DNA of 58,054 bases from Acidimicrobiales bacterium (GTDB lineage Bacteria; Actinomycetota; Acidimicrobiia; Acidimicrobiales; SHLQ01). The translations under genes were made by a program, and so were the position numbers. The DNA lies in NCBI GenBank assembly GCA_004282895.1, contig SHLQ01000001.1:1-58054 (forward strand), in the 5' to 3' direction. Below, in pieces: positions 14,843 to 56,659 of the stretch (positions within the stretch are counted from its first letter, which is position 1; the number at the start of each line of letters is the position of its first letter). Below the pieces are notes generated by a model, which had not been told where the DNA came from, did no database searches, and worked only from the letters and a program-made list of their open reading frames with translations.

Positions 14843-15823
14843 ATGACCACATCCACCACACCCATGCGTGTTGTTCTCACACGCGACGTCTTCGAGAGCG
14901 AACACCTCATCGATGTCGTGGTTTCATCAATCGATGGCGTGACGAGTCTGTGGGGCCGCGAGGATGCACCGATCATCCCGCGATCCGCCATCAAGTCGAT
15001 CCAGGTGATTCCGCTTTTGCGCACCGGTGCCGCCGACGCCTTTGCGGTTACCGACACCGAGGTTGCACTCGGGGCGGCTTCACACAGCGCCGAACCCGAT
15101 CACGTCGCGGCCGTTGCGGCGTGGCTTGCACGAATCGGACGGTCCGAGGCCGATCTCGAATGTGGGCCCGACCGCCCGATACACGAGGAATCGGCCGATG
15201 CCATGCTGGCCGCCGGCGGTTCCGACCATCCTCGCTACAACTGCTGCACGGGTAAACACACCGGGTTTCTCACGATCGCCGCCCACCTTGGGCTCGACCA
15301 TCACGGGTACATCGACCGCGGTCATCCCGTCCAACAACTCATCACCGAAGCGGTGGAGGAGTTCACCGGCGTCGACCTTGCGGGGGTGAGCAACGGTCGA
15401 GACGGCTGTGGCATACCCACGTTTTCGTTTCCGGCCGAGCGACTCAGCCATGCCATGGCCCGGCTCGTCACCCCGGAACTCCACGAAGACGTCACCGCGG
15501 CCGCAACGACAAGGATCGTTGCCACACTGACAGCCAATCCGTGGTGGGTTTCGGGCACCGGCCGCCCCGAGGTGACTCTCACAGAGGCTGCATCAGAACC
15601 GCTCATCATCAAGGGTGGTGCCGAGGGTGTGGTTATGGGCGCACTACCTGATCGAGGGCTCGGGTTTGTCGTGAAGTCGCGCGACGGTTCCCGTCGGGGT
15701 GCCGACGCGGCCGCGGCTTGCCTGCTCGAACAACTTGACGTCGTTGCGCATGGCCACAGCCGGACCGTCGTCACGAACAAGGCGGGCACCGCGGTGGGCG
15801 AACAATACGTGGAGCTCACGTGA
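14843..15823 (+). CDS. Asparaginase II family (PF06089-like) protein
   Basis: ATG at 14843 lies within the longer track ORF. The conserved stretch is IIPRSAIKSIQVIPLLRTGAADAFAVTDTEVALGAASHSAEPDHVAAVAAWLARIG. Confidence 0.8.
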   Translation: MTTSTTPMRVVLTRDVFESEHLIDVVVSSIDGVTSLWGREDAPIIPRSAIKSIQVIPLLRTGAADAFAVTDTEVALGAASHSAEPDHVAAVAAWLARIGRSEADLECGPDRPIHEESADAMLAAGGSDHPRYNCCTGKHTGFLTIAAHLGLDHHGYIDRGHPVQQLITEAVEEFTGVDLAGVSNGRDGCGIPTFSFPAERLSHAMARLVTPELHEDVTAAATTRIVATLTANPWWVSGTGRPEVTLTEAASEPLIIKGGAEGVVMGALPDRGLGFVVKSRDGSRRGADAAAACLLEQLDVVAHGHSRTVVTNKAGTAVGEQYVELT

Positions 15824-16704
15824 CCGCCGTCGATCCCGGCGACCCGGATCTCGCGGTCTTCTCCTCCGACGCCGGTCGCCAGACCGTGTTTGCTTCGGCT
15901 CGCGAAGCATGGAAATACCGCTCGTTCATCAGCTACATGACCAAACGGGATCTGCGGATCACCTACCTCCGAAGCTACCTCGGCTGGTTGTGGTCACTCA
16001 TCAACCCCATCGCCGAGGTCATCATCTACAGCCTCGTGTTCGGGGTGATCCTCAAGGGAAACCGGTCGTTGCCCGACGCCCCCAACGACTTCAGTTCGTT
16101 CCCGCACTATCTCATCGTTGGCCTGGTGGTCTTCAACTTCTATCGAGCGACCTCATCGAAGGTCTTGAACAGCTTTGCGCAGACCGTGAAACTTCGACGC
16201 AAGCTGTATTTCCCCCCGGTCGCCCCTGCGTTGTCGCAGACGTTCACGACGTTGATTCAGAATTCACTCGAAATTGTTGTGCTCGTTCTCTTCTTCGCGA
16301 TAGCCGGTCATCTTTCGATCACCGCGATCGTGGTGATTCCGGTGGCACTCCTCGGCTGTGTTTTCGGCCTCGGGGTTGGTTTGTTGTTGTCGGTGGCGAA
16401 CGCTCGGTACCGCGACGTCGGGTATCTCTACAGCATCTTCCTACGACTGTTCTTCTACCTGATCCCCATCATCTGGCCGCTCGAGTTCGTCGATGAGCGC
16501 ATCGGCAACAAGACGCTGCAGACCCTCGTCAAGTGGAATCCACTGGCCAAACTGATCGAGGTCGCCCGCGATGGAACCTATCTGCACCAGTGGCCACCGT
16601 TGAACGACTGGATCTACCTCGCTGGCACGTCATCGGTGGTTCTGCTTATCGGCTGGATGGTGTTCGCTCGATCATCTGCAGATGTGGCGGAGGGACTGAC
16701 ATGA
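15820..16704 (+). CDS. ABC-2 type polysaccharide/teichoic-acid export permease (Wzm/TagG-like)
   Basis: GTGA overlap with the upstream gene. The motif is WKYRSFISYMTKRDLRITYLRSYLGWLWSLINP, and there are 6 TM segments. Confidence 0.85.
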   Translation: MTAVDPGDPDLAVFSSDAGRQTVFASAREAWKYRSFISYMTKRDLRITYLRSYLGWLWSLINPIAEVIIYSLVFGVILKGNRSLPDAPNDFSSFPHYLIVGLVVFNFYRATSSKVLNSFAQTVKLRRKLYFPPVAPALSQTFTTLIQNSLEIVVLVLFFAIAGHLSITAIVVIPVALLGCVFGLGVGLLLSVANARYRDVGYLYSIFLRLFFYLIPIIWPLEFVDERIGNKTLQTLVKWNPLAKLIEVARDGTYLHQWPPLNDWIYLAGTSSVVLLIGWMVFARSSADVAEGLT

Positions 16705-23222: not shown

Positions 23223-23235
23223 GTTTTCGCCGCGG

Positions 23236-23270
23236 GGCCGGAGCCGTCGCCTTTGGCTCCTTGACCGGCC
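23236..23270 (+). terminator. GC-rich nested stem-loop immediately after nrdB (candidate terminator without a U-tract)
   Basis: GGCCGGAGCC-gtcgccttt-GGCTCC-ttga-CCGGCC lies 14 nt after the nrdB stop. Confidence 0.4.
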
Positions 23271-23285
23271 TGCGGAACGCAAGCG

Positions 23286-23394
23286 CCTTTCCGTTCGACC
23301 GGCGAAGCCGGATCGAACTACCGACGGCTCCTCGATGCTCGGCGGTTGCCTGGCGGCCTTTTCGTTCGAACCGGCTGCGCAGCTTCGAACTACC
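23286..23394. repeat. Two copies of an approximately 37-nt hairpin-containing element with 71-nt period
   Basis: Copy 1 (23286-23322) is CCTTTCCGTTCGACCGGCGAAGCCGGATCGAACTACC. Copy 2 (23357-23394) is CCTTTTCGTTCGAACCGGCTGCGCAGCTTCGAACTACC. Each has GTTCGA...TCGAAC arms. Confidence 0.6.
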
Positions 23395-24255
23395 TGCCGT
23401 TCGCTGTCGTACACTTTTTGTATCAGTGACCGAGATACTCCGACCGTTATCGTTGCCCGCACGGCGCGCCGTGGGCGTGAGCGCGACTTCGAACGCTGGC
23501 TACGTCAGATAACCGACATCGCAGCTCGCCAGCCTGGACACATCGGCAGCGACATTCAGTCGCCGGGCCCCCAACACCCCGACGAGTGGACGATCATCTA
23601 TCAATTCGCCGACCAGCGTCTCCTCGACAAGTGGATCGACTCGCCCGTACGGGCGCAGCTCCTCGCCGAGGGTGTCCTCCTGACGGAGGGCGAAGCGAGG
23701 GTTCAACACCTGGCGATGGGTAGCGGTGATGACCCGGTCACCGCAGTTGCATCATTCCGGATCCTGCCAGGACACGAAGACGCGTTCGAGAAGGGGTATG
23801 AAAGCCTCATCGATGTACTCGAGACGTATGAGGGGTTCCTGCGGGCTCAACTGTTCCCCCCGGTTGAGGGAGTACAGGACGAGACGGTCATTGTCTTCTC
23901 GTTCCAGTCACGCGAAGAACTCGACGTCTGGCTTCGATCCGACGAGCGAAGGATCAGCCTCAACAAGCTGGATGAGCACATGGATGGAGAGCGGCAGGTC
24001 AACGTCGTGGGTGGATTCGGTGGCTGGTTCAGTGTGGGTCAACGTCAGGTCAAGACATGGAAACAAGCCGCGGTCGTCTTGGTGGCGCTGTACCCCGTTG
24101 TGCTTCTGCTCAACGAGGCGCTTGCGCTGATTCTCCCCGATGACGTGCCATACGCGCTGGAAGTCCTGATCGGGTTGGTCGCGAGCGTCTCCCTGCTCAG
24201 CTGGCTGCTCATGCCACGTCTGACGAAGCTCCTGGATGGTTGGCTTCGCCGCTGA
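23335..24255 (+). CDS. Tandem ABM (antibiotic-biosynthesis-monooxygenase-like, ferredoxin-fold) domain protein with C-terminal membrane anchor
   Basis: ATG 23335 is the only canonical in-frame start downstream of the nrdB stop and upstream of the first domain. There are two repeats of an alpha+beta barrel-like pattern (VIVARTARRGRERDFERWL... and VASFRILPGHEDAFEKGY...). The tail WKQAAVVLVALYPVVLLLNE...LLSWLLMPRLTKLLDGWL has 2 TM segments. The start is uncertain because it lies between the two repeat copies. Confidence 0.55.
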   Translation: MLGGCLAAFSFEPAAQLRTTCRSLSYTFCISDRDTPTVIVARTARRGRERDFERWLRQITDIAARQPGHIGSDIQSPGPQHPDEWTIIYQFADQRLLDKWIDSPVRAQLLAEGVLLTEGEARVQHLAMGSGDDPVTAVASFRILPGHEDAFEKGYESLIDVLETYEGFLRAQLFPPVEGVQDETVIVFSFQSREELDVWLRSDERRISLNKLDEHMDGERQVNVVGGFGGWFSVGQRQVKTWKQAAVVLVALYPVVLLLNEALALILPDDVPYALEVLIGLVASVSLLSWLLMPRLTKLLDGWLRR

Positions 24256-26233: not shown

Positions 26234-26982
26234 CGGTTGCGTCTGATTTCGTAGGCGACCAGCGAGGCCGCGACGGCGGCGTTGAGCGACTCAACCCCGT
26301 TGTCGACAGGGATCGATAGCGTCTGGTCACAGGCCGCGAGGGCAGCGACGCTCAGCCCGTCGCTCTCGTTGCCGATCACAAATGCCGCTCGCTCTGGCAG
26401 CGTTGCTTCGACAATCGATTCGCCGCCGGCATCGAGGCCGACAATCGCGAATCGGTGGTCGACGAGCAGCGCCATGGCCTCGGCCATATCTTCGCAGCGC
26501 AGAATCGGCGCCTTGAAGGCCACTCCGGCCGAGGCCTTGATCGCCACGGGCCCGATGTCCGCAGTGCCTTTGTGCGGTACGACCACCCCGTCCACGCCGG
26601 CCGCAGTAGCCGAGCGGAGGATCATGCCCACGTTGGCTGGATTGTGCACGTGATCGAGCACGAGAACCGAACACGCCCAGTCCTTGCCCCGGCGCCGTTG
26701 TTCGCAGAAGTCGCTGAGGTGCTGCATTTCCGGCGCGACGACGTCGGCGACAACCCCCTGATGATGGCGGCTTGAGCGAGCGACCGCCGTGACTTTCTGT
26801 TCGGAGACCCGTTCCATCGCGATCTTGCGGCTCATTGCCATGCCCGCGATTGTGTTGATCTCCGCGCCCTGTGCCTTGCTGCTGATCAGGACCTTGTCGA
26901 TCTCCAGACTCTCGTCATGGAGTGCTTCGATCACCGGCTTGCGCCCCATGACCGTGAGGAAGCGGTCGCGGGGCGACTGCAT
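26230..26982 (-). CDS. TrmH/SpoU-family RNA 2'-O-methyltransferase (RlmB-like)
   Basis: Motifs are VLVLDHVHNPANVGMILRSATAAGVDGVVVP, VIGNESDGLS and LSIPVDNGVESLNAAVAASLVAYE. ATGA overlap with the ileS stop. Confidence 0.85.
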   Translation of the reverse strand: MQSPRDRFLTVMGRKPVIEALHDESLEIDKVLISSKAQGAEINTIAGMAMSRKIAMERVSEQKVTAVARSSRHHQGVVADVVAPEMQHLSDFCEQRRRGKDWACSVLVLDHVHNPANVGMILRSATAAGVDGVVVPHKGTADIGPVAIKASAGVAFKAPILRCEDMAEAMALLVDHRFAIVGLDAGGESIVEATLPERAAFVIGNESDGLSVAALAACDQTLSIPVDNGVESLNAAVAASLVAYEIRRNR

Positions 26983-29900
26983 CAGTTGGCGACGACGAAC
27001 GAGAGTGTCCCGACCGACGCCGCATCGTGGGCCCCGTCGGCGGTGCCTCCGTAGCTGACACTGGCGGAGAGCGTCTGCTCGGCGACGTATGCCTCGTGGG
27101 TTCGCACCGCCTGCGCAGCATCATCGGAGAGATCGAGTGTGAGCGCGATACGGTCTGTGACGACCAGATCCTCGGTCTTGCGAGCCTCCTGCACGGCCCG
27201 GACGATGTCCCGTGCGAGACCTTCGGCCTCGAGGTCGGGGGTGAGCTCGATATCGAGTGCCACCACCGCATCGTTGCTGGGCAGCGCTGCGGCCGTCACA
27301 CCCTCGGCCGGCTTCACGTTGAGGTCGAACTCCTCCGCGGCGAGGGTGTGGCCCGCGATCTTGATCGACCCGTCGTCGTTCTGTGACCAGGCCCCAGACT
27401 TCGCCGCGCCGAACACCTTCTGCACATCACCGCCCAGGCGCGGTCCGAGAACCCTGCCATTTGGCTGCAGCGCGAACTCCGCGAACGCGGAGAGGTCATC
27501 GCTGAACGTCACGGACTTTACGTTGACCTCGTCGGAGATCAGGTGTGAGAGAGCGGCGACGCCGTCGTTGTGCGGCCCGGCGAGCGTGAGGGACTGCAAC
27601 GGCAATCTCACCCGGAGGCCCTCGTCTTCGCGAAGCCGAAGCGCCGCCGAGACCACCTGACGGACCGTGTCCATGCTCGCAACGAGGTCATGGTCTGCTG
27701 CGAACTGATTCGCATCGGGCCAGTCGGTGAGATGGACTGAATCCTCACCGGTGAGGTTCGTGTAGATCTCCTCGGTGATCATCGGCAGGAACGGGGCGGC
27801 AAGCTTCAAGAACGTGGTCAGAACCGTGTACAGGGTGTCGTACGATGCGCGCTTGTCGGCGGTCATGTCAGGACCCCAGAAGCGTTCGCGGCTGCGGCGG
27901 ATGTACCAGTTGTTGAGGGCGTCGATGAACGAGGCGATCTGTTCGCTGGCACCGGCGAGGTCGTAGGCCTCCATTCGTTCGGTGGTGGTCTCGATGACCT
28001 CGCGGAGCTTGGCGAGGATGTACCGGTCGAGTTCATCGGTCGAGTCCGTCCGGAACTCCGCCTGATAGCCATCGATGTTCGCGTAGAGCGTGAAGAACGA
28101 ATAGGCGTTCCACATCGGCAGGAGCACCTGGCGGGTCACCTCGGCGATGCCGTGGTCGCTGATGCGGGCGTCGCCGCCCCGAACGATGTTCGAGTTCATG
28201 AAGTACCAGCGGAGCGCGTCCGCACCCTGCTTGTCGAAGATCTCGCTGGGCTCGGTGTAGTTGCGCAGCTTCTTCGAAAGCTTCTGGCCGTCTTCGGCCA
28301 GAAGGATGCCATGACAGATCACGTTCTGGAACGACGGCTTGTCGAATAGGGCGCCAGCCAGCACATGCAGCGTGTAGAACCAGCCTCGGGTCTGGTTGAT
28401 GTACTCGACGATGAAGTCGGCGGGGTAGTGCTCTTCGAACCACTCCTTGTTCTCGAATGGATAGTGCACCTGCGCGAACGGCATCGAGCCGCTCTCGAAC
28501 CAGCAATCGAGAACCTCGGGGACACGTCGCATCATCGACTGTCCGGTCGGATCGTCCGGGTTGGGCCGGACGAGCTCGTCGATGAACGGACGATGCAGGT
28601 TCGTCGGGCGTACGCCAAAGTCAGCCTCGATCTCGTCGAGGCTGCCGTACACGTCGATCCGCGGGTACTCGGGGTTATCGCTGCGCCACACCGGGATCGG
28701 TGAACCCCAGAAGCGGTTGCGACTGATCGACCAGTCGCGTGCGCCTTCGAGCCATCGGCCGAAACGTCCGTCGCGGACGTTCTCGGGGATCCAGTTGATG
28801 TCCTGGTTGAGCTCGACCAGTCGGTCGCGGAAGTCGGTGACCTTCACGTACCACGACGGCAACGCCCGATAGATGATCGGCGTATCGGTGCGCCAGCAGT
28901 GCGGGTAGTTGTGTTCGTAGCTGTCGTGACGGATCAGCTGTCCGGCTTCACGCAGATGGCGGATGATCTCGGTGTTGGCCTCGAGGACGTTTTGCCCGGC
29001 GAAGTCTGGCACCTCGTCGGTGAACCGACCCTGATCGTTGACGGGCACGACCATACCCATGCCGTTCTCCTCGGCAATACGTTGATCGTCTTCGCCAAAG
29101 CCCGGCGCGGTGTGCACGACGCCGGTGCCCTCGTCCGTCTCGACGAAATCGCCGGCCATAACCCGGAACGCGTTGAGATCATCGCGATCGGCGAAGTAGT
29201 CGAAGACTGGCGTGTAAGTGCGGTCGAGTAGTTCACTGCCTTGGATGACGGAGTGTTGCGTCGCCCCAACGAGTTGCTTCTCATACGTCGCCACCGTGGC
29301 CTCGCCGAGGATGTAGAACACCCCGGCCATTTCCATGATCGCGTAATCGATGTCGGGACCGACGATGAGGCCGAGGTTCGATGGCAGGGTCCACGGGGTG
29401 GTGGTCCAGGCGAGCATCTTCATCGGCCCCGGATCGTCCGGGTTGGGGGTGAGATCGAATGCGACTGTAACGGCTGGGTCCTGGCGGGGGCGTGTGGCGT
29501 CATCGAGGCGCAACTCGAAGTTGGACAGTGGCGTCTCGGCGCCCCACGAATAGGGCATCACGCGGTTGGCTTCGTAGATCAGGCCCTTGTCCCACAACCG
29601 CTTGAACGCCCAGATGACCGACTCCATGTAGTCGAGGTCCATGGTCTTGTAGTCGTTCTCGAAGTCGACCCAGCGCGCCTGACGGGTGACGGTCTGTTCC
29701 CACTCCTTGGTGTACCGAAGGACGGAGGTGCGGCACTGTTCGTTGAATTCGGCGATGCCGTATTCGTGGATGGCGGCCCGGCCCGACACCCCAAGTTGCT
29801 TCTCGGTCTCCATCTCCGCCGGGAGCCCATGGCAATCCCACCCGAAACGTCGGTCGACCTTCTTGCCGCGCATGGTCTGGTAGCGCGGCACCACGTCCTT

Positions 29901-30110
29901 GACATACCCCGTGAGGAGATGCCCGTGGTGGGGGAGTCCATTGGCGAACGGCGGCCCGTCGTAGAACACAAATTCGTTGTCTTCGGGGCGCATCTCGATG
30001 CTGGCCTCGAACGTGTCGGCAGCCTTCCAGCGGTCCAGAATCCGCGCCTCGATGGCCGGAAAATCCGGCTTGTCGGCGGTCGGATAGGGGTTGCCAGTCG
30101 CTTCTGCCAT
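26982..30110 (-). CDS. ileS: Isoleucyl-tRNA synthetase (long, about 1042 aa, type-2-like)
   Basis: ATG at 30110 (MAEATGNPYP...). Motifs are PFANGLPHHGHLL (HIGH-type) and KLSKKLRN (KMSKS-type). The track ORF continues about 590 codons upstream with an Arg/Gly/Val-rich non-protein-like sequence. Confidence 0.95.
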   Translation of the reverse strand: MAEATGNPYPTADKPDFPAIEARILDRWKAADTFEASIEMRPEDNEFVFYDGPPFANGLPHHGHLLTGYVKDVVPRYQTMRGKKVDRRFGWDCHGLPAEMETEKQLGVSGRAAIHEYGIAEFNEQCRTSVLRYTKEWEQTVTRQARWVDFENDYKTMDLDYMESVIWAFKRLWDKGLIYEANRVMPYSWGAETPLSNFELRLDDATRPRQDPAVTVAFDLTPNPDDPGPMKMLAWTTTPWTLPSNLGLIVGPDIDYAIMEMAGVFYILGEATVATYEKQLVGATQHSVIQGSELLDRTYTPVFDYFADRDDLNAFRVMAGDFVETDEGTGVVHTAPGFGEDDQRIAEENGMGMVVPVNDQGRFTDEVPDFAGQNVLEANTEIIRHLREAGQLIRHDSYEHNYPHCWRTDTPIIYRALPSWYVKVTDFRDRLVELNQDINWIPENVRDGRFGRWLEGARDWSISRNRFWGSPIPVWRSDNPEYPRIDVYGSLDEIEADFGVRPTNLHRPFIDELVRPNPDDPTGQSMMRRVPEVLDCWFESGSMPFAQVHYPFENKEWFEEHYPADFIVEYINQTRGWFYTLHVLAGALFDKPSFQNVICHGILLAEDGQKLSKKLRNYTEPSEIFDKQGADALRWYFMNSNIVRGGDARISDHGIAEVTRQVLLPMWNAYSFFTLYANIDGYQAEFRTDSTDELDRYILAKLREVIETTTERMEAYDLAGASEQIASFIDALNNWYIRRSRERFWGPDMTADKRASYDTLYTVLTTFLKLAAPFLPMITEEIYTNLTGEDSVHLTDWPDANQFAADHDLVASMDTVRQVVSAALRLREDEGLRVRLPLQSLTLAGPHNDGVAALSHLISDEVNVKSVTFSDDLSAFAEFALQPNGRVLGPRLGGDVQKVFGAAKSGAWSQNDDGSIKIAGHTLAAEEFDLNVKPAEGVTAAALPSNDAVVALDIELTPDLEAEGLARDIVRAVQEARKTEDLVVTDRIALTLDLSDDAAQAVRTHEAYVAEQTLSASVSYGGTADGAHDAASVGTLSFVVAN

Positions 30111-30239
30111 AACGACACAGGCTATCGACCCCGAATTCGATCGGGTCCGATCGGCCCTCTCATCCTGAGCCGTTTCACCCATCCAGTTGGGCCCCACTTT
30201 TGTCGTTGTATCAAGGGAGGCGACAAGAAGGCTGTGGTA

Positions 30240-32366
30240 ATGAAGAGAAATCGAACAGAGGCCGAGCGGGGAGCGCTTCTTGTCCTGACCGCGCTCGCGA
30301 TGTTGATCATCCTGATGATCGCCGCCTTCGCCACCGATCTCGGCGCGTGGTACCGCCAGGGTCAGGAGCAACAGCGAGCGGCCGACATCGCTTCGCTCAA
30401 CGGTGTCCAGACCTACGAGGCGAGCCGCAAGGCCAACATGCCTACGGGCGCCGGTTGGTGGGATGATGCCCCGTTGCTTACCTCGGCGACCATGCGACAA
30501 ACCGTGGAGACGGCCGCATTCAAGGACGCGGTAGACGCGATCCGCGGTGTGCTCGCGTCCGGTGGTGTCATCATTTCGACCGAACCGATCTGGAACATCA
30601 ACGCCCCCAATCCCCCGATTTACACCAACCGCTCCATCGCCACGATGACCGCCGACGATGGCACGATCGTCGTCGTTGAACGAACGACCGACAACCAGAT
30701 CGTGGTCACGGTGTCTCAACAGGGGGATCAGTACTTCTCCGCGATGTTGGGCGCCACGCCCACGATCGTTCGGACCTCCACTGGCACGCTCTCCAACTGC
30801 GGCGCCACGTGTGACGTGCAGATCGTGCTCGACCCACCATTCGCGGGGTTTTCTGCGGCCGGTAACGGCGATGGGTACAAACCGCAGGTGTACTACGACG
30901 GCTTTGGTCATCCGAAGGAAGCCTGGGCCGTCAACCACCATGTGACGACGCCGGGTTCGGGGCAGATCATTTGCATGGACATTGCCGCCGGCAACTTCTG
31001 TGCGAACCCCCCTGGAGCAGCCGCAGGCCCCGCAAATGGCAAATACGACTTCAACTCCTCGCCGTCCGGGGACGTGTTCGAAACCCACAACCGCGGCTCC
31101 GACTACCTGCATCAGGCCAACGGCAAGCTGTACTTCACCGTTCGCAATGACGATAAGAACGACAGCGGCCTGGCGTGTTTCGATGTCAACACCAAGAACT
31201 GGTGCTCGACCCCCTTCAAGAACCTGTACAACGACGACGCAAACGGCGGCGCCGCGCGCGTCAACGCGACCGGCCCCTGGCTGTACGCGGGTGAGCTCTA
31301 TGTGATCGACATCACGGGCGACATCAAGTGTGTCGAGCTCGATATGAGCGGTTGTGGTTCGTGGAATTCCGACGCCCACAACTACATCACCAGCGACGAG
31401 AACGACCCGGCACACCTTGTGCACGCCGAGTTCGACGACAGCACCAACAAGCTCTACTTCGCCCACCATCGCAGCGGCGACAGTGTTATCCATTGCTTCG
31501 ACCTCGTGGCGAAGGATGGCTGTGCCGGCTGGGGTGGCACGCCGAGAGTCCTGAGTGTTGTTGGCGGTGGCAACACCGACAACCGGTTCACGCACTTCCG
31601 CTATGACTCCATCTCGCACAACCCCACCGGCATCTGTGTCAGCACTCCCAAGGGCAACGGTGCCGCGGGCACGCCCGCCAGCGGCTGCTTCGGTTTGGCC
31701 AGCCCGGGTACGGCTTCTTCGGTCGGCGGCATGGCGACGGCAATGGGGTACATGTCCTCTGCCACCTGGGCCGGAGACGCCTTGACCTGGGAAGGAAAGC
31801 GAACCTTCTTCGGCGGCGGAAACTCCAACCGGACCGCCTGCTACAACTGGGAAACCGCGTCCGCGTGCAGTTACATCGCCCACCCGGCTGAGAACACCCT
31901 AACGAGTGCGAAAGAGGCGGTTCGGCCGTATTCGTTCACGATGGTCACGCCGGAGTGTGTGATGGGCCTGGGCCACGACGCCAACTTCTTCTCCTTCAAC
32001 CCCGACGGCATGACCAAGTGCGTGGACACGGAGCTAACAACCAACATCATCCCGTGCGACTGCGCCGGTGGTGGCGAACGATACGGCATTGTGAACTTCC
32101 CGCAGTCTCTGTTGAACAAGGTTGATGTCATGCATGCCGACGTCTACGAAAGTGACGGCACCACGCCGATCCCGGGTGCGACGAACATCGATATCCTCGC
32201 CACGGGCGGGGAGCTCGATCTGAGCGCAGCGCCGGTCTCGGAGCCGTTTCTCGTGCTCAATCTGGTGGTAAACGCTCGAATCGATCCGGCCACCGGCGAC
32301 CCGATGTGGACCAACCAGGAGTTTGTCGATCTCGAGCTGCTCGTCCAGGCCACACTCTCCGGCTAG
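30240..32366 (+). CDS. Secreted/membrane-anchored protein: TadE/TadG-like N-terminal domain fused to a Cys-rich PQQ/BamB-like beta-propeller
   Basis: ATG at 30240 (alternative GTG at 30234) follows AAGGGAGG. The N-terminus RGALLVLTALAMLIILMIAAFATDLGAWYRQGQEQQRAADIASLNG matches the Tad_N pattern. The downstream DQYFSAMLGATPTIVRTSTG is of the TadG type. Repeated blades then carry C-x7/8-C pairs. Confidence 0.65.
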   Translation: MKRNRTEAERGALLVLTALAMLIILMIAAFATDLGAWYRQGQEQQRAADIASLNGVQTYEASRKANMPTGAGWWDDAPLLTSATMRQTVETAAFKDAVDAIRGVLASGGVIISTEPIWNINAPNPPIYTNRSIATMTADDGTIVVVERTTDNQIVVTVSQQGDQYFSAMLGATPTIVRTSTGTLSNCGATCDVQIVLDPPFAGFSAAGNGDGYKPQVYYDGFGHPKEAWAVNHHVTTPGSGQIICMDIAAGNFCANPPGAAAGPANGKYDFNSSPSGDVFETHNRGSDYLHQANGKLYFTVRNDDKNDSGLACFDVNTKNWCSTPFKNLYNDDANGGAARVNATGPWLYAGELYVIDITGDIKCVELDMSGCGSWNSDAHNYITSDENDPAHLVHAEFDDSTNKLYFAHHRSGDSVIHCFDLVAKDGCAGWGGTPRVLSVVGGGNTDNRFTHFRYDSISHNPTGICVSTPKGNGAAGTPASGCFGLASPGTASSVGGMATAMGYMSSATWAGDALTWEGKRTFFGGGNSNRTACYNWETASACSYIAHPAENTLTSAKEAVRPYSFTMVTPECVMGLGHDANFFSFNPDGMTKCVDTELTTNIIPCDCAGGGERYGIVNFPQSLLNKVDVMHADVYESDGTTPIPGATNIDILATGGELDLSAAPVSEPFLVLNLVVNARIDPATGDPMWTNQEFVDLELLVQATLSG

Positions 32367-37532: not shown

Positions 37533-38321
37533 GTGGCGTTGCCGGAATTCGAAACCATCCGACTGGACGAGATGGACAACCGGGTCTTCGAACTCGTGTT
37601 GGCGCGTCCACCAGCCAATGCGTTGTCGAAGCAGATGGCGTTTGAGTTGCGCCAGGCAGCATCCTGGCTCGCCGGGACCGGTGCCGCCCGAGCGGTGGTA
37701 TTGCGGGGCGAAGGCAAGGTGTTCTTCGGCGGCGGCGACCTTGCGGAACTGTCGTCCGGCGGCGATATGACACCGTCGAATCTCAACGAGATGACGATCG
37801 ACTTCCACGGCGCTATTCATCGTCTGGCGACCATGGATGCGCCGGTCGTGACCGGTGTGACGGGAACGGCCGGAGGCGCCGGAGTCAGTACGGTCGCGGC
37901 CAGTGACCTTGTGGTCGCCGGCGAGTCTGCTCGTTTCGTCATGGCGTACACGGCGGCTGGTCTCACCCCCGACGGAACGTCGACGTTCTTCCTCAGCCGG
38001 GTGGTCGGATTGCGGCGCGCGACCGAGATGGTATTGACCAACCGCATGCTCTCCGCCACGGAGGCTCTCGGCTGGGGTCTCATCAACCGTGTGGTTCCTG
38101 ACGATGTCGTCGTGGCCGAAGCCCGAGCGCTGGCGGCGAAACTTGCCGAGGGCCCGACCCACGCCTACGGCGGCGCGAAGCGGTTGCTCATCGCCGGCGC
38201 CTCATCCGCGTTGGCCGAAGCGATGGAACGCGAGTCCTATGCGATCGCCCAACAGTCGGTGCACCCGGAGGCGGTCGAGGGTATGGATGCGTTCCTGAAC
38301 AAACGCAAGCCGAGCTTCTAG
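37533..38321 (+). CDS. Enoyl-CoA hydratase/isomerase (crotonase) family protein
   Basis: GTG at 37533 lies 6 nt after GGGAGG. The crotonase pattern VVLRGEGKVFFGGGDL is present; about 262 aa. Confidence 0.8.
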   Translation: MALPEFETIRLDEMDNRVFELVLARPPANALSKQMAFELRQAASWLAGTGAARAVVLRGEGKVFFGGGDLAELSSGGDMTPSNLNEMTIDFHGAIHRLATMDAPVVTGVTGTAGGAGVSTVAASDLVVAGESARFVMAYTAAGLTPDGTSTFFLSRVVGLRRATEMVLTNRMLSATEALGWGLINRVVPDDVVVAEARALAAKLAEGPTHAYGGAKRLLIAGASSALAEAMERESYAIAQQSVHPEAVEGMDAFLNKRKPSF

Positions 38322-38334
38322 GGCGCGAGCCTTT

Positions 38335-49933: not shown

Positions 49934-51934
49934 GTGACTCGAACCAACTCCTTGATTGTCGGTGTGGACACGGGCGGCACCTATACCGACGCGGTTCTCC
50001 TCGACGCCATGTCTATGGAGGTTCTTTCGTCGGCGAAGGCGCTCACCACCAGGGGTGACCTCTCCGTGGGTGTGTCGAACGCGTTGGATCTGATCAGCGA
50101 AGGTCTGGATCCGGCTGCGGTCGCGTTGGTGTCGGTTTCGACGACACTCGCCACGAATGCGGTGGTGGAAGGGCACGGCAGCCCCGTGCTGGTCGTTCTG
50201 GTCGGGTTCGACGCCGCCATGCTGGAGCGAAGCGGTATTCAGTCGGCGTTCAACGACGTGATCATCGAGCAGGTCGATGGAGGCCACGACCATCATGGCA
50301 ACGAGCAGGTGCCCCTTGACCTCGACGCGCTGCGCCACATCCTGTTGGCCCGGGAGTCGAAGGTGCGGGCCGTCGCGGTGGCGGCGCCTTTTGCGGTCCG
50401 GAACCCCACCCATGAGCTGCAGGTCCGCGATCTCGTCACGGAGACGACGAAGTTGCCGGTGACCATCTCGAGCGAGCTCTCAGAATCACTCGATGCACCA
50501 AGGCGGGCGCTTACCGCAGTGTTGAATGCGCGTCTGCTTTCGAAGATCGCCGACCTGGTCTCGGCGGTCGGTCGGTCGGTCGAGGCGCTGGGAATCACTG
50601 CGCCGGTCACGATCGCGAAAGGTGATGGGTCGCTGGCCGTGGCCGATGCGGTCGCCCGACGTCCGATCGAAACGATCCTGTCCGGTCCGGCCGCCTCGAT
50701 GATCGGGGCGGGTGTACTTTCGAATCGAACCGATTTCCTCCTGAGTGATATCGGCGGCACTACAACCGACGTCGGCCAGTCGATCGACGGCCGGCCCTTG
50801 CTCGCCCCGCAGGGGGCGATGGTTGGCGGGTGGCGCACCATGGTGCGGGCGATCGACGTGCGTACGACCGGCCTTGGTGGCGACAGCAGTGTCACGACCG
50901 ATGGAGATCGGGTTGCGGTTGGGCCGCGACGGTCGGTTCCGATCTCACTGCTGGGGGTCGATCACCCGTCGGTCACCACCCGGCTGCGGGCGGAGTTGGC
51001 CGACCCCGAGTCCCGTGAGCTCGCGGCCCTGTTCGTGCTTCGTCCCATAGGCGCGACCGATACACGACTGGAGTTCACCAGCGTCGAACAGCGGGTGTTC
51101 GATCGCATCGGTACGGAACCGATCTCGATCGCGCAGGCCACCTCAGGCACCGTCGAACGCCGGGTGCTGGACGGATTGGCCGAACGCGGCATGGTGCAGC
51201 TGGCCGGGTTCACGCCCTCCGATGCGGCGCATGTGCTCGGGATACAGGAGAACTGGTCGATGGAGGCCGCTACGGCCGCCGCAGAGGTGATGGCGTGGTA
51301 CACCGGGTTGGCGGTGGAGGACTTCTGTCAGCGGGTCTGGTCCGAGACGGTGCGCCGAAGTGCGCTGGCAGTACTCGAGGTGGCGGTTGGGGACGGGTTG
51401 GCCGCACCCACATCTGATCCCGTGATCTCCGCCGCCGTCGACGGGCGGGGGACACTCGGCCGCACGAGGATCTCGATCGCGCCGACGGATCCCGTCGTTG
51501 CGGTCGGTGGACCGGCCGGCGTCTACTACCCCGAGGTGGCGGCGCGGCTTTCGGCCGAGCTCATCCTCCCGGAGCAGTTCGCCGTGGCCAACGCCGTCGG
51601 GGCAGCGGCGGGGTATCTGGCGGCCCACAGCACCACGGAGGTGCACACCGACGGCCCGGGATTGTTCCGTGTGGTCACCCACCACGGAGTGGAGACCGCA
51701 ACCGATGCCAGCGACGCCCTTGCGACCGCCCATCAGCGGGCGGAGGAGATCGCGCGGGCCGAACTCGCTGCGCTGGCAACGGGGCTTCCTGCGATTGGTG
51801 ACACCCACATTCGCACAGAGGTCGAACGCCACGACGCGCCGGATTCGGTGGCCGACGAAGGTCTGTACTTCGCGCGGGTATTCACCGAGGTACGTGCTCG
51901 TCCATTCGCTGTGGACGCTACGATGTCCACATGA
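49934..51934 (+). CDS. Hydantoinase/oxoprolinase (HyuA-like) family protein
   Basis: GTG at 49934 (VTRTNSLIVGVDTGGTYTDAVLLD). The second ASKHA-type motif is LLSDIGGTTTDV. The stop overlaps the next start (ATGA). Confidence 0.8.
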   Translation: MTRTNSLIVGVDTGGTYTDAVLLDAMSMEVLSSAKALTTRGDLSVGVSNALDLISEGLDPAAVALVSVSTTLATNAVVEGHGSPVLVVLVGFDAAMLERSGIQSAFNDVIIEQVDGGHDHHGNEQVPLDLDALRHILLARESKVRAVAVAAPFAVRNPTHELQVRDLVTETTKLPVTISSELSESLDAPRRALTAVLNARLLSKIADLVSAVGRSVEALGITAPVTIAKGDGSLAVADAVARRPIETILSGPAASMIGAGVLSNRTDFLLSDIGGTTTDVGQSIDGRPLLAPQGAMVGGWRTMVRAIDVRTTGLGGDSSVTTDGDRVAVGPRRSVPISLLGVDHPSVTTRLRAELADPESRELAALFVLRPIGATDTRLEFTSVEQRVFDRIGTEPISIAQATSGTVERRVLDGLAERGMVQLAGFTPSDAAHVLGIQENWSMEAATAAAEVMAWYTGLAVEDFCQRVWSETVRRSALAVLEVAVGDGLAAPTSDPVISAAVDGRGTLGRTRISIAPTDPVVAVGGPAGVYYPEVAARLSAELILPEQFAVANAVGAAAGYLAAHSTTEVHTDGPGLFRVVTHHGVETATDASDALATAHQRAEEIARAELAALATGLPAIGDTHIRTEVERHDAPDSVADEGLYFARVFTEVRARPFAVDATMST

Positions 51935-52380
51935 AGGTCGGAGACAAGGTAGGGGACTTCACCGCTGTCGATCAGAACGGTGACGAGGTTCGGTTGAGTG
52001 AGCTGCTCGCCTTCGGACCCGTCGTTCTGTTCTTCTATCCCAAGGCGAAGACCCCGCTTTGAACGAAGGAAAGCTGTCATTTCCGTGACCTGGCCGCCGA
52101 TTTCAACGAAGTGAACGGCCAGCGAGTGGGAATCAGCGCAGATCCGGTGGGTCTGCAGAAGGAATTCTCCGACGAGAACAACCTCGATTTTCCGTTGTTG
52201 TCGGATCCGGACGGGTCGATCCACAAACAGTTCGGTACCAAACGTTTCGGTCCGCTTCCCGGCAAACGAGCCACGTTTGTTATTGCGACCGATGGGGAGT
52301 TGATGGCGGAGATCCGCTCGGAGACCAGCGGAACGGTTCACGCCGACGACGCCCTGCGCGTCCTACGCGGCGACGCCTGA
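51931..52380 (+). CDS. bcp: Bcp/PrxQ-type peroxiredoxin with in-frame TGA (52060-52062) at the peroxidatic Cys position: selenocysteine candidate, or a nonsense pseudogene
   Basis: The frame from ATG 51931 reads ...VVLFFYPKAKTPL-TGA-TKESCHFRDLAADF..., and the same frame continues into the track ORF 52111-52380. This aligns to E. coli Bcp [23 protein letters not shown], with the resolving Cys retained at +5. Confidence 0.7.
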
Positions 52381-52385
52381 GGTTC

Positions 52386-52778
52386 TCAGCGTTCGAGTTC
52401 GACCTCGAGTGTGTCGCCACCCCAGCCGTTGATCAGATCGCGACCTTCGATCGTCACCATCGCCACGTCCGCCGGAATCTCTATGCCGGACTTCGATCGC
52501 GTGAATGGTTGCTCGTTGGCATGGTCGTGCGTCAGTATCCGCACAGCCAGTTCTGTGCCATCGGGCGCAAGCACACGCCAGGCGTCCGCGTACCGTTCGG
52601 GGCTGTCGTAAGGCGAGGAAATGGTGACGTCGATCTTCCAGCCGTCGTCCTGCCTCGACGCCGTTGCGGCAACGACGCTCGGAAATGACGCGTCAGCCGA
52701 GCCGCTGTTCGACTGCGGGGTTGCGCCACAGCCTGCCAGCAGCGAACCACACGCAATGATGGTGAGCAGCCTGCGCAT
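52386..52778 (-). CDS. Small lipoprotein of unknown function
   Basis: Lipobox LLAGC after MRRLLTIIACGS; 130 aa. It lies immediately downstream of the PAP2-like gene. Confidence 0.6.
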   Translation of the reverse strand: MRRLLTIIACGSLLAGCGATPQSNSGSADASFPSVVAATASRQDDGWKIDVTISSPYDSPERYADAWRVLAPDGTELAVRILTHDHANEQPFTRSKSGIEIPADVAMVTIEGRDLINGWGGDTLEVELER

Positions 52779-56020: not shown

Positions 56021-56659
56021 ATGCTCTTCCAACGACCCACACCCGTGATGATCACCCCCGACGAGGCATTGCCCGGCCGCGCCGAACCCGTGGCTGTCGC
56101 CGCGTCGCATCTCATACTCGGCACCTCGATGGAGCCGCCTTTTCCTGAGGGGTCCGAGCAACTGATCGTGGGTATGGGGTGTTTCTGGGGTGCCGAACGG
56201 TTCTTCTGGCAGGCCGAAGGAGTACACACGACCGCGGTTGGGTATGCCGGTGGCTACACCCCGAACCCGACGTATGAGGAGGTGTGTTCGGGCAGGACCG
56301 GGCACACCGAGGCCGTTCTCGTTGTCTATGACCCTGCGGTCGCTGCGATCGACGATCTGCTCGCGTTGTTCTGGGAGAACCACGATCCAACGACGATGCA
56401 CCGTCAGGGTAATGACGTTGGCACGCAATATCGCAGCGCCATCTACACGACTTCGGCAGAGCAGGCGGCCGCCGTCGCCGCCTCGGCCGACACGTACGCG
56501 GAGCGTCTCACGGGTGCGGGATTTGGGGAGATCAGCACGGAAATCGCCCCCGCTGGCACGTTCTATTACGCCGAGGATTATCACCAGCAGTACCTGGAGA
56601 AGAACCCCAACGGCTACTGCAACCACGGGTTCTGCCAGATCTCCTACGCCGACAACTAG
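56021..56659 (+). CDS. msrA: Peptide-methionine (S)-S-oxide reductase
   Basis: GMGCFWGAE active site, GHTEAV and YHQQYL; 212 aa. Confidence 0.9.

Follow-up and report, generated by a model that had tools for sequence, protein, structure and literature searches.

Peroxiredoxin (Prx), with an active site of the form T/SxxU in which U denotes selenocysteine (Sec), is one of 25 bacterial selenoprotein families and was represented by 12 proteins, three of them in Anaeromyxobacter, in the survey of Zhang et al. 2006 (PMC1794560). It was later counted as the seventh most common selenoprotein family, with 91 proteins in 78 organisms (Peng et al. 2016, PMC5029168), and a 2026 review places the Prx selenoproteins under PF00578 with the motif PxxxTxxU (PMC13188914). 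Here we examined a 58,054-nucleotide (nt) stretch of an Acidimicrobiales metagenome-assembled genome (MAG; the whole of contig SHLQ01000001.1 of GCA_004282895.1), hereafter the window, in which a Bcp/PrxQ-type peroxiredoxin gene on the forward strand (51931-52380) is interrupted by an in-frame TGA that is very probably read as Sec.

The window gene agrees with the described Sec-Prx family in Pfam domain, motif and position of Sec, and it is predicted by the same logic, a UGA set against Cys; Anaeromyxobacter, listed in 2006, is also among the matches with TGA in a bcp gene found here (L043 and L051, where L-numbers denote the genomic or metagenomic loci compared and P-numbers the deposited protein sequences). 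The clade to which the gene belongs differs from other Sec-Prx in being specific to Acidimicrobiia, in containing a subclade with TPL-U at the active site, and in lacking the fdhF-like hairpin of most other Sec-Bcp genes. PrxU (NF040737), which we take to be the characterised Sec-peroxiredoxin of Eubacterium acidaminophilum, is thioredoxin-dependent and has Sec at the peroxidatic position, as we propose for the window protein, but represents a different Prx subfamily, its model covering ~230 amino acids (aa) against 149 aa with a U-x4-C spacing in the window; the window protein scored 30 bits with this model, below its cutoff of 270. The Cys-type Bcp/PrxQ proteins (NF006960, NF053650 and the PDB entries 5EPF, 3DRN, 2CX4 and 3GKK) share with it the fold family, the length, the Arg and the PxxxTxxC...C pattern, in which the peroxidatic (Cp) and resolving (Cr) Cys are spaced Cp-x4-Cr, and the actinobacterial Cys forms are 60-67% identical to it. 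Unlike these proteins, the window gene has UGA for its peroxidatic residue, and its downstream synonymous sites are constrained. Both the Sec-peroxiredoxin family and Sec decoding in Acidimicrobiia (Ilumatobacter, Microthrix and Actinomarina) are already known and published, and nothing is overturned here; two features are mildly new, the clade restricted to Acidimicrobiia, including its TPL-U subclade, and an apparently non-consensus, long-range selenocysteine insertion sequence (SECIS), neither of which is described in the literature examined.

An in-frame UGA at the peroxidatic position

The frame comprises 149 codons of an AhpC/TSA (Bcp/PrxQ) protein followed by a TGA stop, with 43 codons from the ATG encoding MKVGDKVGDFTAVDQNGDEVRLSELLAFGPVVLFFYPKAKTPL, the internal TGA, and 105 further codons whose product begins TKESCHFRD. 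The list of open reading frames (ORFs) shows only an 89-codon ORF opened by a GTG (52111-52380), as an earlier sequence-only reading of the window had noted, and gene callers cut the peroxiredoxin coding sequence (CDS) into pieces of 43 and 89 codons. That reading had also placed the start codon in an ATGA overlap with the preceding gene and had located the internal TGA and the terminal stop, at coordinates that all match the sequence (Table 1). The preceding gene is a hydantoinase-A of 680 codons, and the overlap of its stop with the peroxiredoxin ATG suggests that the translation of the two genes is coupled. No Shine-Dalgarno sequence was found upstream of the window ATG, and in the non-syntenic homologue L002 an AGGAGG precedes the homologous ATG.

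With Cys placed at the TGA, the product matched PF00578 (AhpC-TSA) with E = 1.8e-30 and 105.9 bits (cutoff 26), residues 3-124 corresponding to profile positions 1-121 of 124, an end-to-end match. A second match, to PDB 5EPF (E = 4e-44, residues 1-147), runs column for column over TPGC-TKEAC-HFRD. Both in this alignment and in one with 14 homologues, the TGA occupies the peroxidatic Cys column of YPKA.TP[G]C-TKE[S/A]C-HFRD, with the resolving Cys five residues later, exactly where the sequence-only reading had put them. P37, T41, C49 and R113 are all conserved in the resulting 15-sequence alignment, C49 being nearly invariant. The U44-to-C49 spacing of U-x4-C in a monomer-size protein of 149 aa is the Bcp/PrxQ hallmark, in which peroxidatic and resolving residues stand five apart (Cp-x4-Cr), and the combination of a PF00578 domain with PxxxTxxU, the UGA lying on the peroxidatic Cys column, is that of the Sec-Prx family. 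Among the NCBIfam models, the best was NF006960 (Bcp) at 81 bits against a cutoff of 140, followed by NF053650 (PrxQ) at 76 bits against 260. Because both scores fall below the equivalog cutoffs, the window protein is, as judged by these profiles, a relative within the Bcp/PrxQ subfamily and not an equivalog.

Conservation of the UGA and selection on the gene

The same TGA is present in three independent assemblies of one species, namely the window, the sister MAG GCA_013001425.1 (L139), in which the gene differs by 2 nt elsewhere with the TGA unchanged, and a Logan contig (L001, from SRR11195980). When metagenomes were scanned with the protein, relatives at 96, 85 and ~70% identity all carried the TGA in an intact frame, and the highest-ranking Cys form was 55% identical; down to ~54% protein identity, all relatives have TGA in this codon column, well beyond what chance would produce. 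Scanning of public genomes with the pattern FYP.A.T..-TGA-T...C..RD, which fixes motif positions at the protein level only, gave at least 119 Bcp loci with TGA at Cp, and in every one of them the frame continues past the TGA. The matches listed include Acidobacteriota, Planctomycetota, Myxococcota, Verrucomicrobiota, Acidimicrobiia and other groups.

The clade of the window gene carries the signature U-T[KR][EQ]SC[HR]FRD, and its members, 54-73% identical to the window protein, derive almost entirely from MAGs of Acidimicrobiia, Acidimicrobiales, Ca. Microthrix and Ca. Aldehydirespirator. It consists purely of Sec forms, ~28 sequences with TGA in every member. In a neighbour-joining tree of 23 Sec forms and the 118 best database matches, built without bootstrap support, the Sec forms cluster with one apparent exception, the deposited protein P0006, whose DNA also carries TGA; the clade excludes the 117 nearest Cys forms. 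Two contigs from one study bear other taxonomic labels, L031 (CAXMRH010000289.1) being binned as Chthoniobacterales and L006 (CAXMSE010000107.1) as Gammaproteobacteria; L031 shares synteny with loci of Acidimicrobiia, the Bcp of L006 falls in the window's clade, and both contigs are probably mis-binned.

The window gene lies in a block comprising an aminotransferase, the hydantoinase, Bcp, a 130-aa ORF, a trypsin-like protease, an AMP-ligase and MsrA. This block is syntenic in L078, L031, L081, L096, L124, L125 and L122 at 55-79% aa identity, with TGA in all seven, and synteny at such protein identities means that these genes are true orthologues and that the TGA is therefore old. Closed chromosomes of syntenic relatives (OZ242033.1, OZ244029.1, OZ220709.1, OZ244202.1 and JAWPMS010000001.1) are among those with orthologues. 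One subclade, the window included, has TPL-U in place of TPG-U. The sequence-only reading had offered, as its alternative, a single-nucleotide change from a Cys codon; within this subclade the difference is not a single-base one, since the preceding Gly has been replaced by Leu (CTT).

Estimates of the ratio of nonsynonymous to synonymous substitution rates (dN/dS; Nei-Gojobori, ten relatives) were 0.07-0.19 upstream of the TGA and 0.14-0.32 downstream of it, at dS of ~0.7-2.3, indicating that both halves of the gene are under purifying selection, and no frameshift or second stop was found in the ~28 clade members or in 99 other Sec-Bcp genes. The alignment of orthologues that the sequence-only reading had named as a check thus has TGA in the column and purifying selection beyond it. 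Because the TGA is kept in syntenic orthologues and throughout an all-Sec clade, with purifying selection on both sides, frozen synonymous sites downstream (see below) and agreement among three assemblies, the comparative evidence strongly favours Sec recoding over a nonsense mutation, in line with the sequence-only reading, which had preferred recoding to decay. We consider it highly probable that the TGA is the Sec codon (U44) of a single thioredoxin-dependent Bcp/PrxQ peroxiredoxin of 149 residues.

RNA-level constraint and a candidate SECIS element

Synonymous sites are frozen over ~85 nt past the TGA. In the Sec clade, the synonymous-codon entropy at conserved residues is 0.67-0.78 bits across codons 44-72, versus 1.2-1.35 bits elsewhere in the same genes. 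The peptide past the active site is nearly equal in Sec and Cys forms, yet the synonymous codons differ: His50 is CAT in 24 of 27 Sec forms and CAC in five of six Cys forms, Gly67 is GGA in 24 of 27 Sec forms and GGG, GGC or GGA in the six Cys forms, and Glu47 is mostly GAA in Sec forms and always GAG in the six Cys forms, while Ser48 and Ser69 are encoded by AGC in Sec forms. The low entropy across codons 44-72 points to a constraint at the RNA level over ~85 nt past the UGA, a conclusion much more secure than the SECIS assignment that follows.

RNAalifold analysis of alignment A2 (27 Sec forms, in which column n equals window position 52053+n) gave a long-range helix of GCUG/CAGC and UUCC/GGAA enclosing a hairpin GAGUUC-NNN-GAACUC. 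The element in the window is a three-tier stem-loop of 65 nt (Table 1), with its base 10 nt past the UGA, starting at +14, and its apical loop 42 nt past the UGA. It is both the minimum free energy (MFE) and the centroid structure when 52072-52138 is folded, at -25.6 kcal/mol (range -24 to -26) and z = -2.7; a fold of 52055-52130, from which the 3' arm is missing, gave z = -0.2, and the L096 orthologue takes the same fold at -36.2 kcal/mol and z = -3.7. Two stem-loops had been put forward as SECIS candidates by the sequence-only reading, and both are present. The second of them (52090-52122, -14.1 kcal/mol) is real and constitutes the middle and inner tiers of the larger 65-nt element, whereas the first, a small hairpin, is not specific to Sec forms.

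Pair counting showed the 10-bp outer helix to be 96.7% paired and the element 88% paired overall, against 33-50% for slid partners. Compensatory changes occur at five pairs, a number reached by 19 of 500 shuffles. The middle tier is retained through differing codons across subclades, CCAG being drawn from GCC-CAG, GCC-AGU or UCC-AGG, and the element as a whole is built from the codons of SCHFR...EF.EL...RVGIS. Compared with their own synonymous recodings, the Sec forms fold better (mean z -1.65, 24 of 27 negative, the window -1.8) and the six Cys forms have a mean z of ~0, with a Mann-Whitney p of 0.018 between Sec and Cys forms that is uncorrected for phylogeny. Of the 10 possible Watson-Crick pairs of the outer helix, Sec forms have on average 8.3 and Cys forms 6.0; for the six of the inner hairpin, the averages are 5.7 and 3.8, respectively.

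The consensus bacterial SECIS (bSECIS) has an apical loop of 3-9 nt with G in the first two loop positions, an upper stem of 4-16 bp, a UGA-to-loop distance of 16-37 nt and an MFE of -7.5 kcal/mol or lower, with some elements falling outside the model (PMC13188914). Most orthologues have a G-first apical loop, and the window has AAC. Outside the window's clade, 63 of the 99 listed Sec-Bcp genes have GGGU[UA]CCG exactly 18 nt past the U of UGA, and the hairpin of these other clades, GGUUGCGG-GUU-CCGCGACC, fits the bSECIS model (in the example L013, -18.8 kcal/mol, 17-nt spacing and a G-first loop). It is very close to the E. coli fdhF SECIS, which we take to be GGUUGCAGGUCUGCACC. The window element resembles the fdhF-type SECIS as a stem-loop within the coding sequence that starts ~10 nt past the UGA, and differs from it and from the bSECIS consensus in its 65-nt length, its three tiers and its distant AAC loop.

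In our estimate, the chances that this modelled element is the SECIS of the window gene are evenly balanced. More tentative still, and somewhat doubtful, is the proposal that the Sec-PrxQ genes of the Acidimicrobiia clade depend on a bacterial SECIS class of their own, in which a 65-nt three-tier stem-loop with its loop ~42 nt away replaces the fdhF-like hairpin of Sec-Bcp genes in other phyla. Should it be true, it would imply another mode of mRNA recognition by SelB in Acidimicrobiia, where the SelB of Actinomarina is reported to be divergent. The two candidate SECIS architectures within one protein family form a natural pair for studies of how SelB recognition evolves.

The small hairpin at 52068-52084 was rejected as a SECIS candidate, its folding energy of -4.1 kcal/mol and spacing of 10 nt lying outside the bSECIS limits (PMC13188914). 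It begins 5 nt past the UGA and competes with the outer helix of the 65-nt element for UUUCC; its outer pairs are broken in 7-8 of the 27 sequences, and it is absent from the TRQ subclade. No covariation was found in it among the 27 Sec forms, and it proved no better than its synonymous recodings and no better in Sec than in Cys forms. A register-shift covariation of CAC with UUU was suggestive in three of four cases and failed the recoding test. The hairpin is probably a by-product of the peptide KESCHF. As to the ribosome footprint, with UGA in the A site the 5' arm of the small hairpin (+9 to +13) would sit inside the mRNA channel, and an element starting at +14 resembles the fdhF minihelix in position.

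Table 1 Features of the putative Sec-peroxiredoxin gene in the window
Feature	Position	Strand	Evidence
Complete CDS of the putative Sec-containing Bcp/PrxQ	51931..52380	+	Translation, PF00578, PDB 5EPF, dN/dS
ATGA overlap of the hydantoinase-A stop TGA with the peroxiredoxin ATG	51931..51934	+	Sequence; also in L001
Active-site motif P37-K-A-K-T41-P-L-U44 (PxxxTxxU)	52039..52062	+	Alignments; motif definition in PMC13188914
Candidate Sec codon UGA	52060-52062	+	TGA kept in all clade members
Resolving Cys codon C49, TGT	52075..52077	+	Alignment
Conserved catalytic Arg codon R113 in GKRATFVI	52267..52269	+	Invariant alignment column
True stop TGA of the peroxiredoxin gene	52378..52380	+	Sequence
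Candidate SECIS, 65-nt three-tier stem-loop	52073..52137	+	MFE/centroid fold, RNAalifold, pair counts, entropy, recoding test
Outer helix, GCUG and AUUUCCGU pairing with GUGGGAAU and CAGC	52073-76 and 52079-86 with 52126-33 and 52134-37		
Middle helix, CUGGCCG pairing with CGGCCAG	52090-96 with 52116-22		
Inner helix, AUUUC pairing with GAAGU; loop AAC	52100-04 with 52108-12; loop 52105-07		
Small hairpin GGAAA-GCUGUCA-UUUCC	52068..52084	+	Fold of -4.1 kcal/mol

Selenocysteine machinery in the class and the compared loci

Ilumatobacter coccineus, I. nonamiensis and Ca. Microthrix parvicella are SelD+/SelA+/SelB+ (PMC5029168, Table S1) and have 15, 10 and 7 selenoproteins, respectively, most Actinobacteria having one (PMC5029168, Table S2), and selA, selB, selC and selD occur in all 84 complete Actinomarina genomes (bioRxiv 10.64898/2026.04.03.716425). 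The expectation voiced in the sequence-only reading, that selenoproteins are scarce in actinobacteria, does not apply to this class, for which Sec decoding and comparatively rich selenoproteomes are documented in these two sources. A member of the window's clade is carried by a Ca. Microthrix MAG (L101). Searching of ~1 Mb of loci by tblastn with E. coli SelA, SelB and SelD gave a sole match, in a Candidatus Binatia MAG (L025), where a full-length SelB homologue (L025:1138-3027; 32% identical to E. coli SelB over 605 of 614 residues) lies in the same 8-kb locus as a Sec-Bcp gene. We infer that the host genome of the window would also encode the sel genes.

Some observations weigh against Sec recoding, or against the element proposed to direct it. 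Neither a Pfam scan, which covered 40 of the window's 44 called genes, nor the tblastn search above found selA, selB or selD within the 58 kb of the window or the 8-kb flanks of clade members; Rfam and ARAGORN revealed no tRNA-Sec and no Rfam family in the window and 26 clade loci; and the candidates for another UGA-interrupted gene in the window all proved to be gene junctions or antisense artefacts. On the RNA side, the near-invariance of the helix arms keeps column-wise covariation modest, the controls of the recoding comparison are six Cys-form DNAs with a p value uncorrected for phylogeny, and the 65-nt element departs from the consensus bSECIS in having its loop 42 nt from the UGA and in the sequence AAC, without the expected G.

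Alternative readings of the UGA

A decaying peroxiredoxin gene with a nonsense-mutated Cys codon would be in keeping with the separate ORFs of 43 and 89 codons returned by the gene callers and with the window being without visible Sec machinery; however, the TGA has been retained at dS near 1-2 with dN/dS of 0.07-0.32 on both sides, the ~28 clade members and 99 other Sec-Bcp genes are free of frameshifts and second stops, and conservation at synonymous sites rises downstream of the TGA instead of falling, so that we regard a pseudogene as very improbable. A sequencing or assembly error concealing a true TGC or TGT is a general possibility in a MAG, but the window, GCA_013001425.1 and the Logan contig from SRR11195980 agree on TGA, and more than 25 diverged relatives from different studies carry it as well, which leaves such an error next to no probability. 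Equally negligible is a split gene, whose 43-aa and 89-aa halves would be made separately and then assemble: a GTG at 52111 does open the 89-codon ORF, but no ribosome-binding site precedes it, and the 16 codons between the TGA and this GTG (TKESCHFRDLAADFNE), where conservation within the family is highest and where the resolving Cys lies, would go untranslated.

Two further explanations accept a full-length product. Genome-wide reassignment of TGA to a sense codon (code 4 or 25) would be in keeping with the deposited proteins P0001 and P0006, which have W at the TGA column; yet no ordinary stop codon is more frequent in the window than TGA, which ends 25 of the 44 called genes, the peroxiredoxin included, and reading it as W in L002 adds a nonsense extension of 80 residues past the homologous stop, so the chance of reassignment is minimal. 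The UGA might also be read through without selenium, with Cys or Trp inserted by a near-cognate tRNA or Cys carried on tRNASec, to give a full-length protein that is not a selenoprotein, perhaps in a lineage that has lost selD or lives without selenium. The mismatch of the downstream structure to the consensus bSECIS would suit this explanation. Against this, such long retention of a UGA precisely in the column of a redox-active Cys is what normally marks Sec, the family has many Sec forms and the class has documented SelA, SelB and SelD; moreover, leaky read-through would leave an antioxidant gene under strong purifying selection producing mostly a truncated product of 43 residues. We judge selenium-free read-through unlikely.

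Proposed mechanism of Sec insertion and catalysis

For Sec recoding, the reading that we favour, we infer that an mRNA structure directly past the UGA would bring in SelB bearing Sec-tRNASec, such that the UGA would be read as Sec and not as a stop. The best candidate for the recruiting structure is the three-tier stem-loop, some part of which would be bound by SelB. In the E. coli fdhF system, 10 nt past the UGA is approximately where the mRNA enters the ribosome with the UGA in the A site. The resulting enzyme would reduce peroxides via a selenenic acid at U44, which C49 would resolve to an intramolecular selenenylsulfide, and thioredoxin would then recycle the protein.

Annotation of Sec-Bcp genes and its consequences

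The JGI gene calls P0001 (L002:196-885) and P0006 (L140:291-743) translate the Sec TGA as Trp, and P0001 furthermore continues beyond the genuine TGA stop, so that a spurious 229-aa 'peroxiredoxin Q/BCP' ending in 80 nonsense residues results. For L139:525-974 (JABDMO010000250.1), the source annotation has one 149-residue feature across the TGA with no Pfam match recorded, which may be either a Sec annotation or a pseudogene span. Because a full-length database match near 100% identity to the read-through product was not found, the evidence leans towards there being no deposited protein for it.

An apparently functional antioxidant gene is thus split or discarded by standard gene callers, and at least 119 species-level genomes are mis-annotated in this way; Sec-Bcp proteins are therefore systematically undercounted in MAG surveys of oxidative-stress genes and of selenium use. 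With the window gene, Acidimicrobiia, a class with a richer selenoproteome than most Actinomycetota, gains a selenoprotein that comparative sequence evidence supports well.

Neighbouring genes and other features of the window

Directly downstream of the peroxiredoxin gene and convergent with it lies the 130-aa ORF of the conserved block (52386-52778, reverse strand). It has no Pfam or NCBIfam match, yet syntenic relatives have it at the corresponding place with 55-90% identity; it is a lineage-specific protein. The MsrA (PMSR) gene of the same block (56021-56659, forward strand) is uninterrupted and without an in-frame TGA, although MsrA is among the known selenoprotein families. The peroxiredoxin and MsrA, both antioxidant repair enzymes, thus travel together in this block. 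Elsewhere in the window, three stretches of 0.5-1 kb (15485-16532, 23223-24239 and 37787-38334) contain no ORF passing a gene call based on GC3. A 1633-aa ORF occupies 26982-31883 on the reverse strand, and an RTX calcium-binding repeat protein is encoded at the contig start (50-1675, reverse strand).

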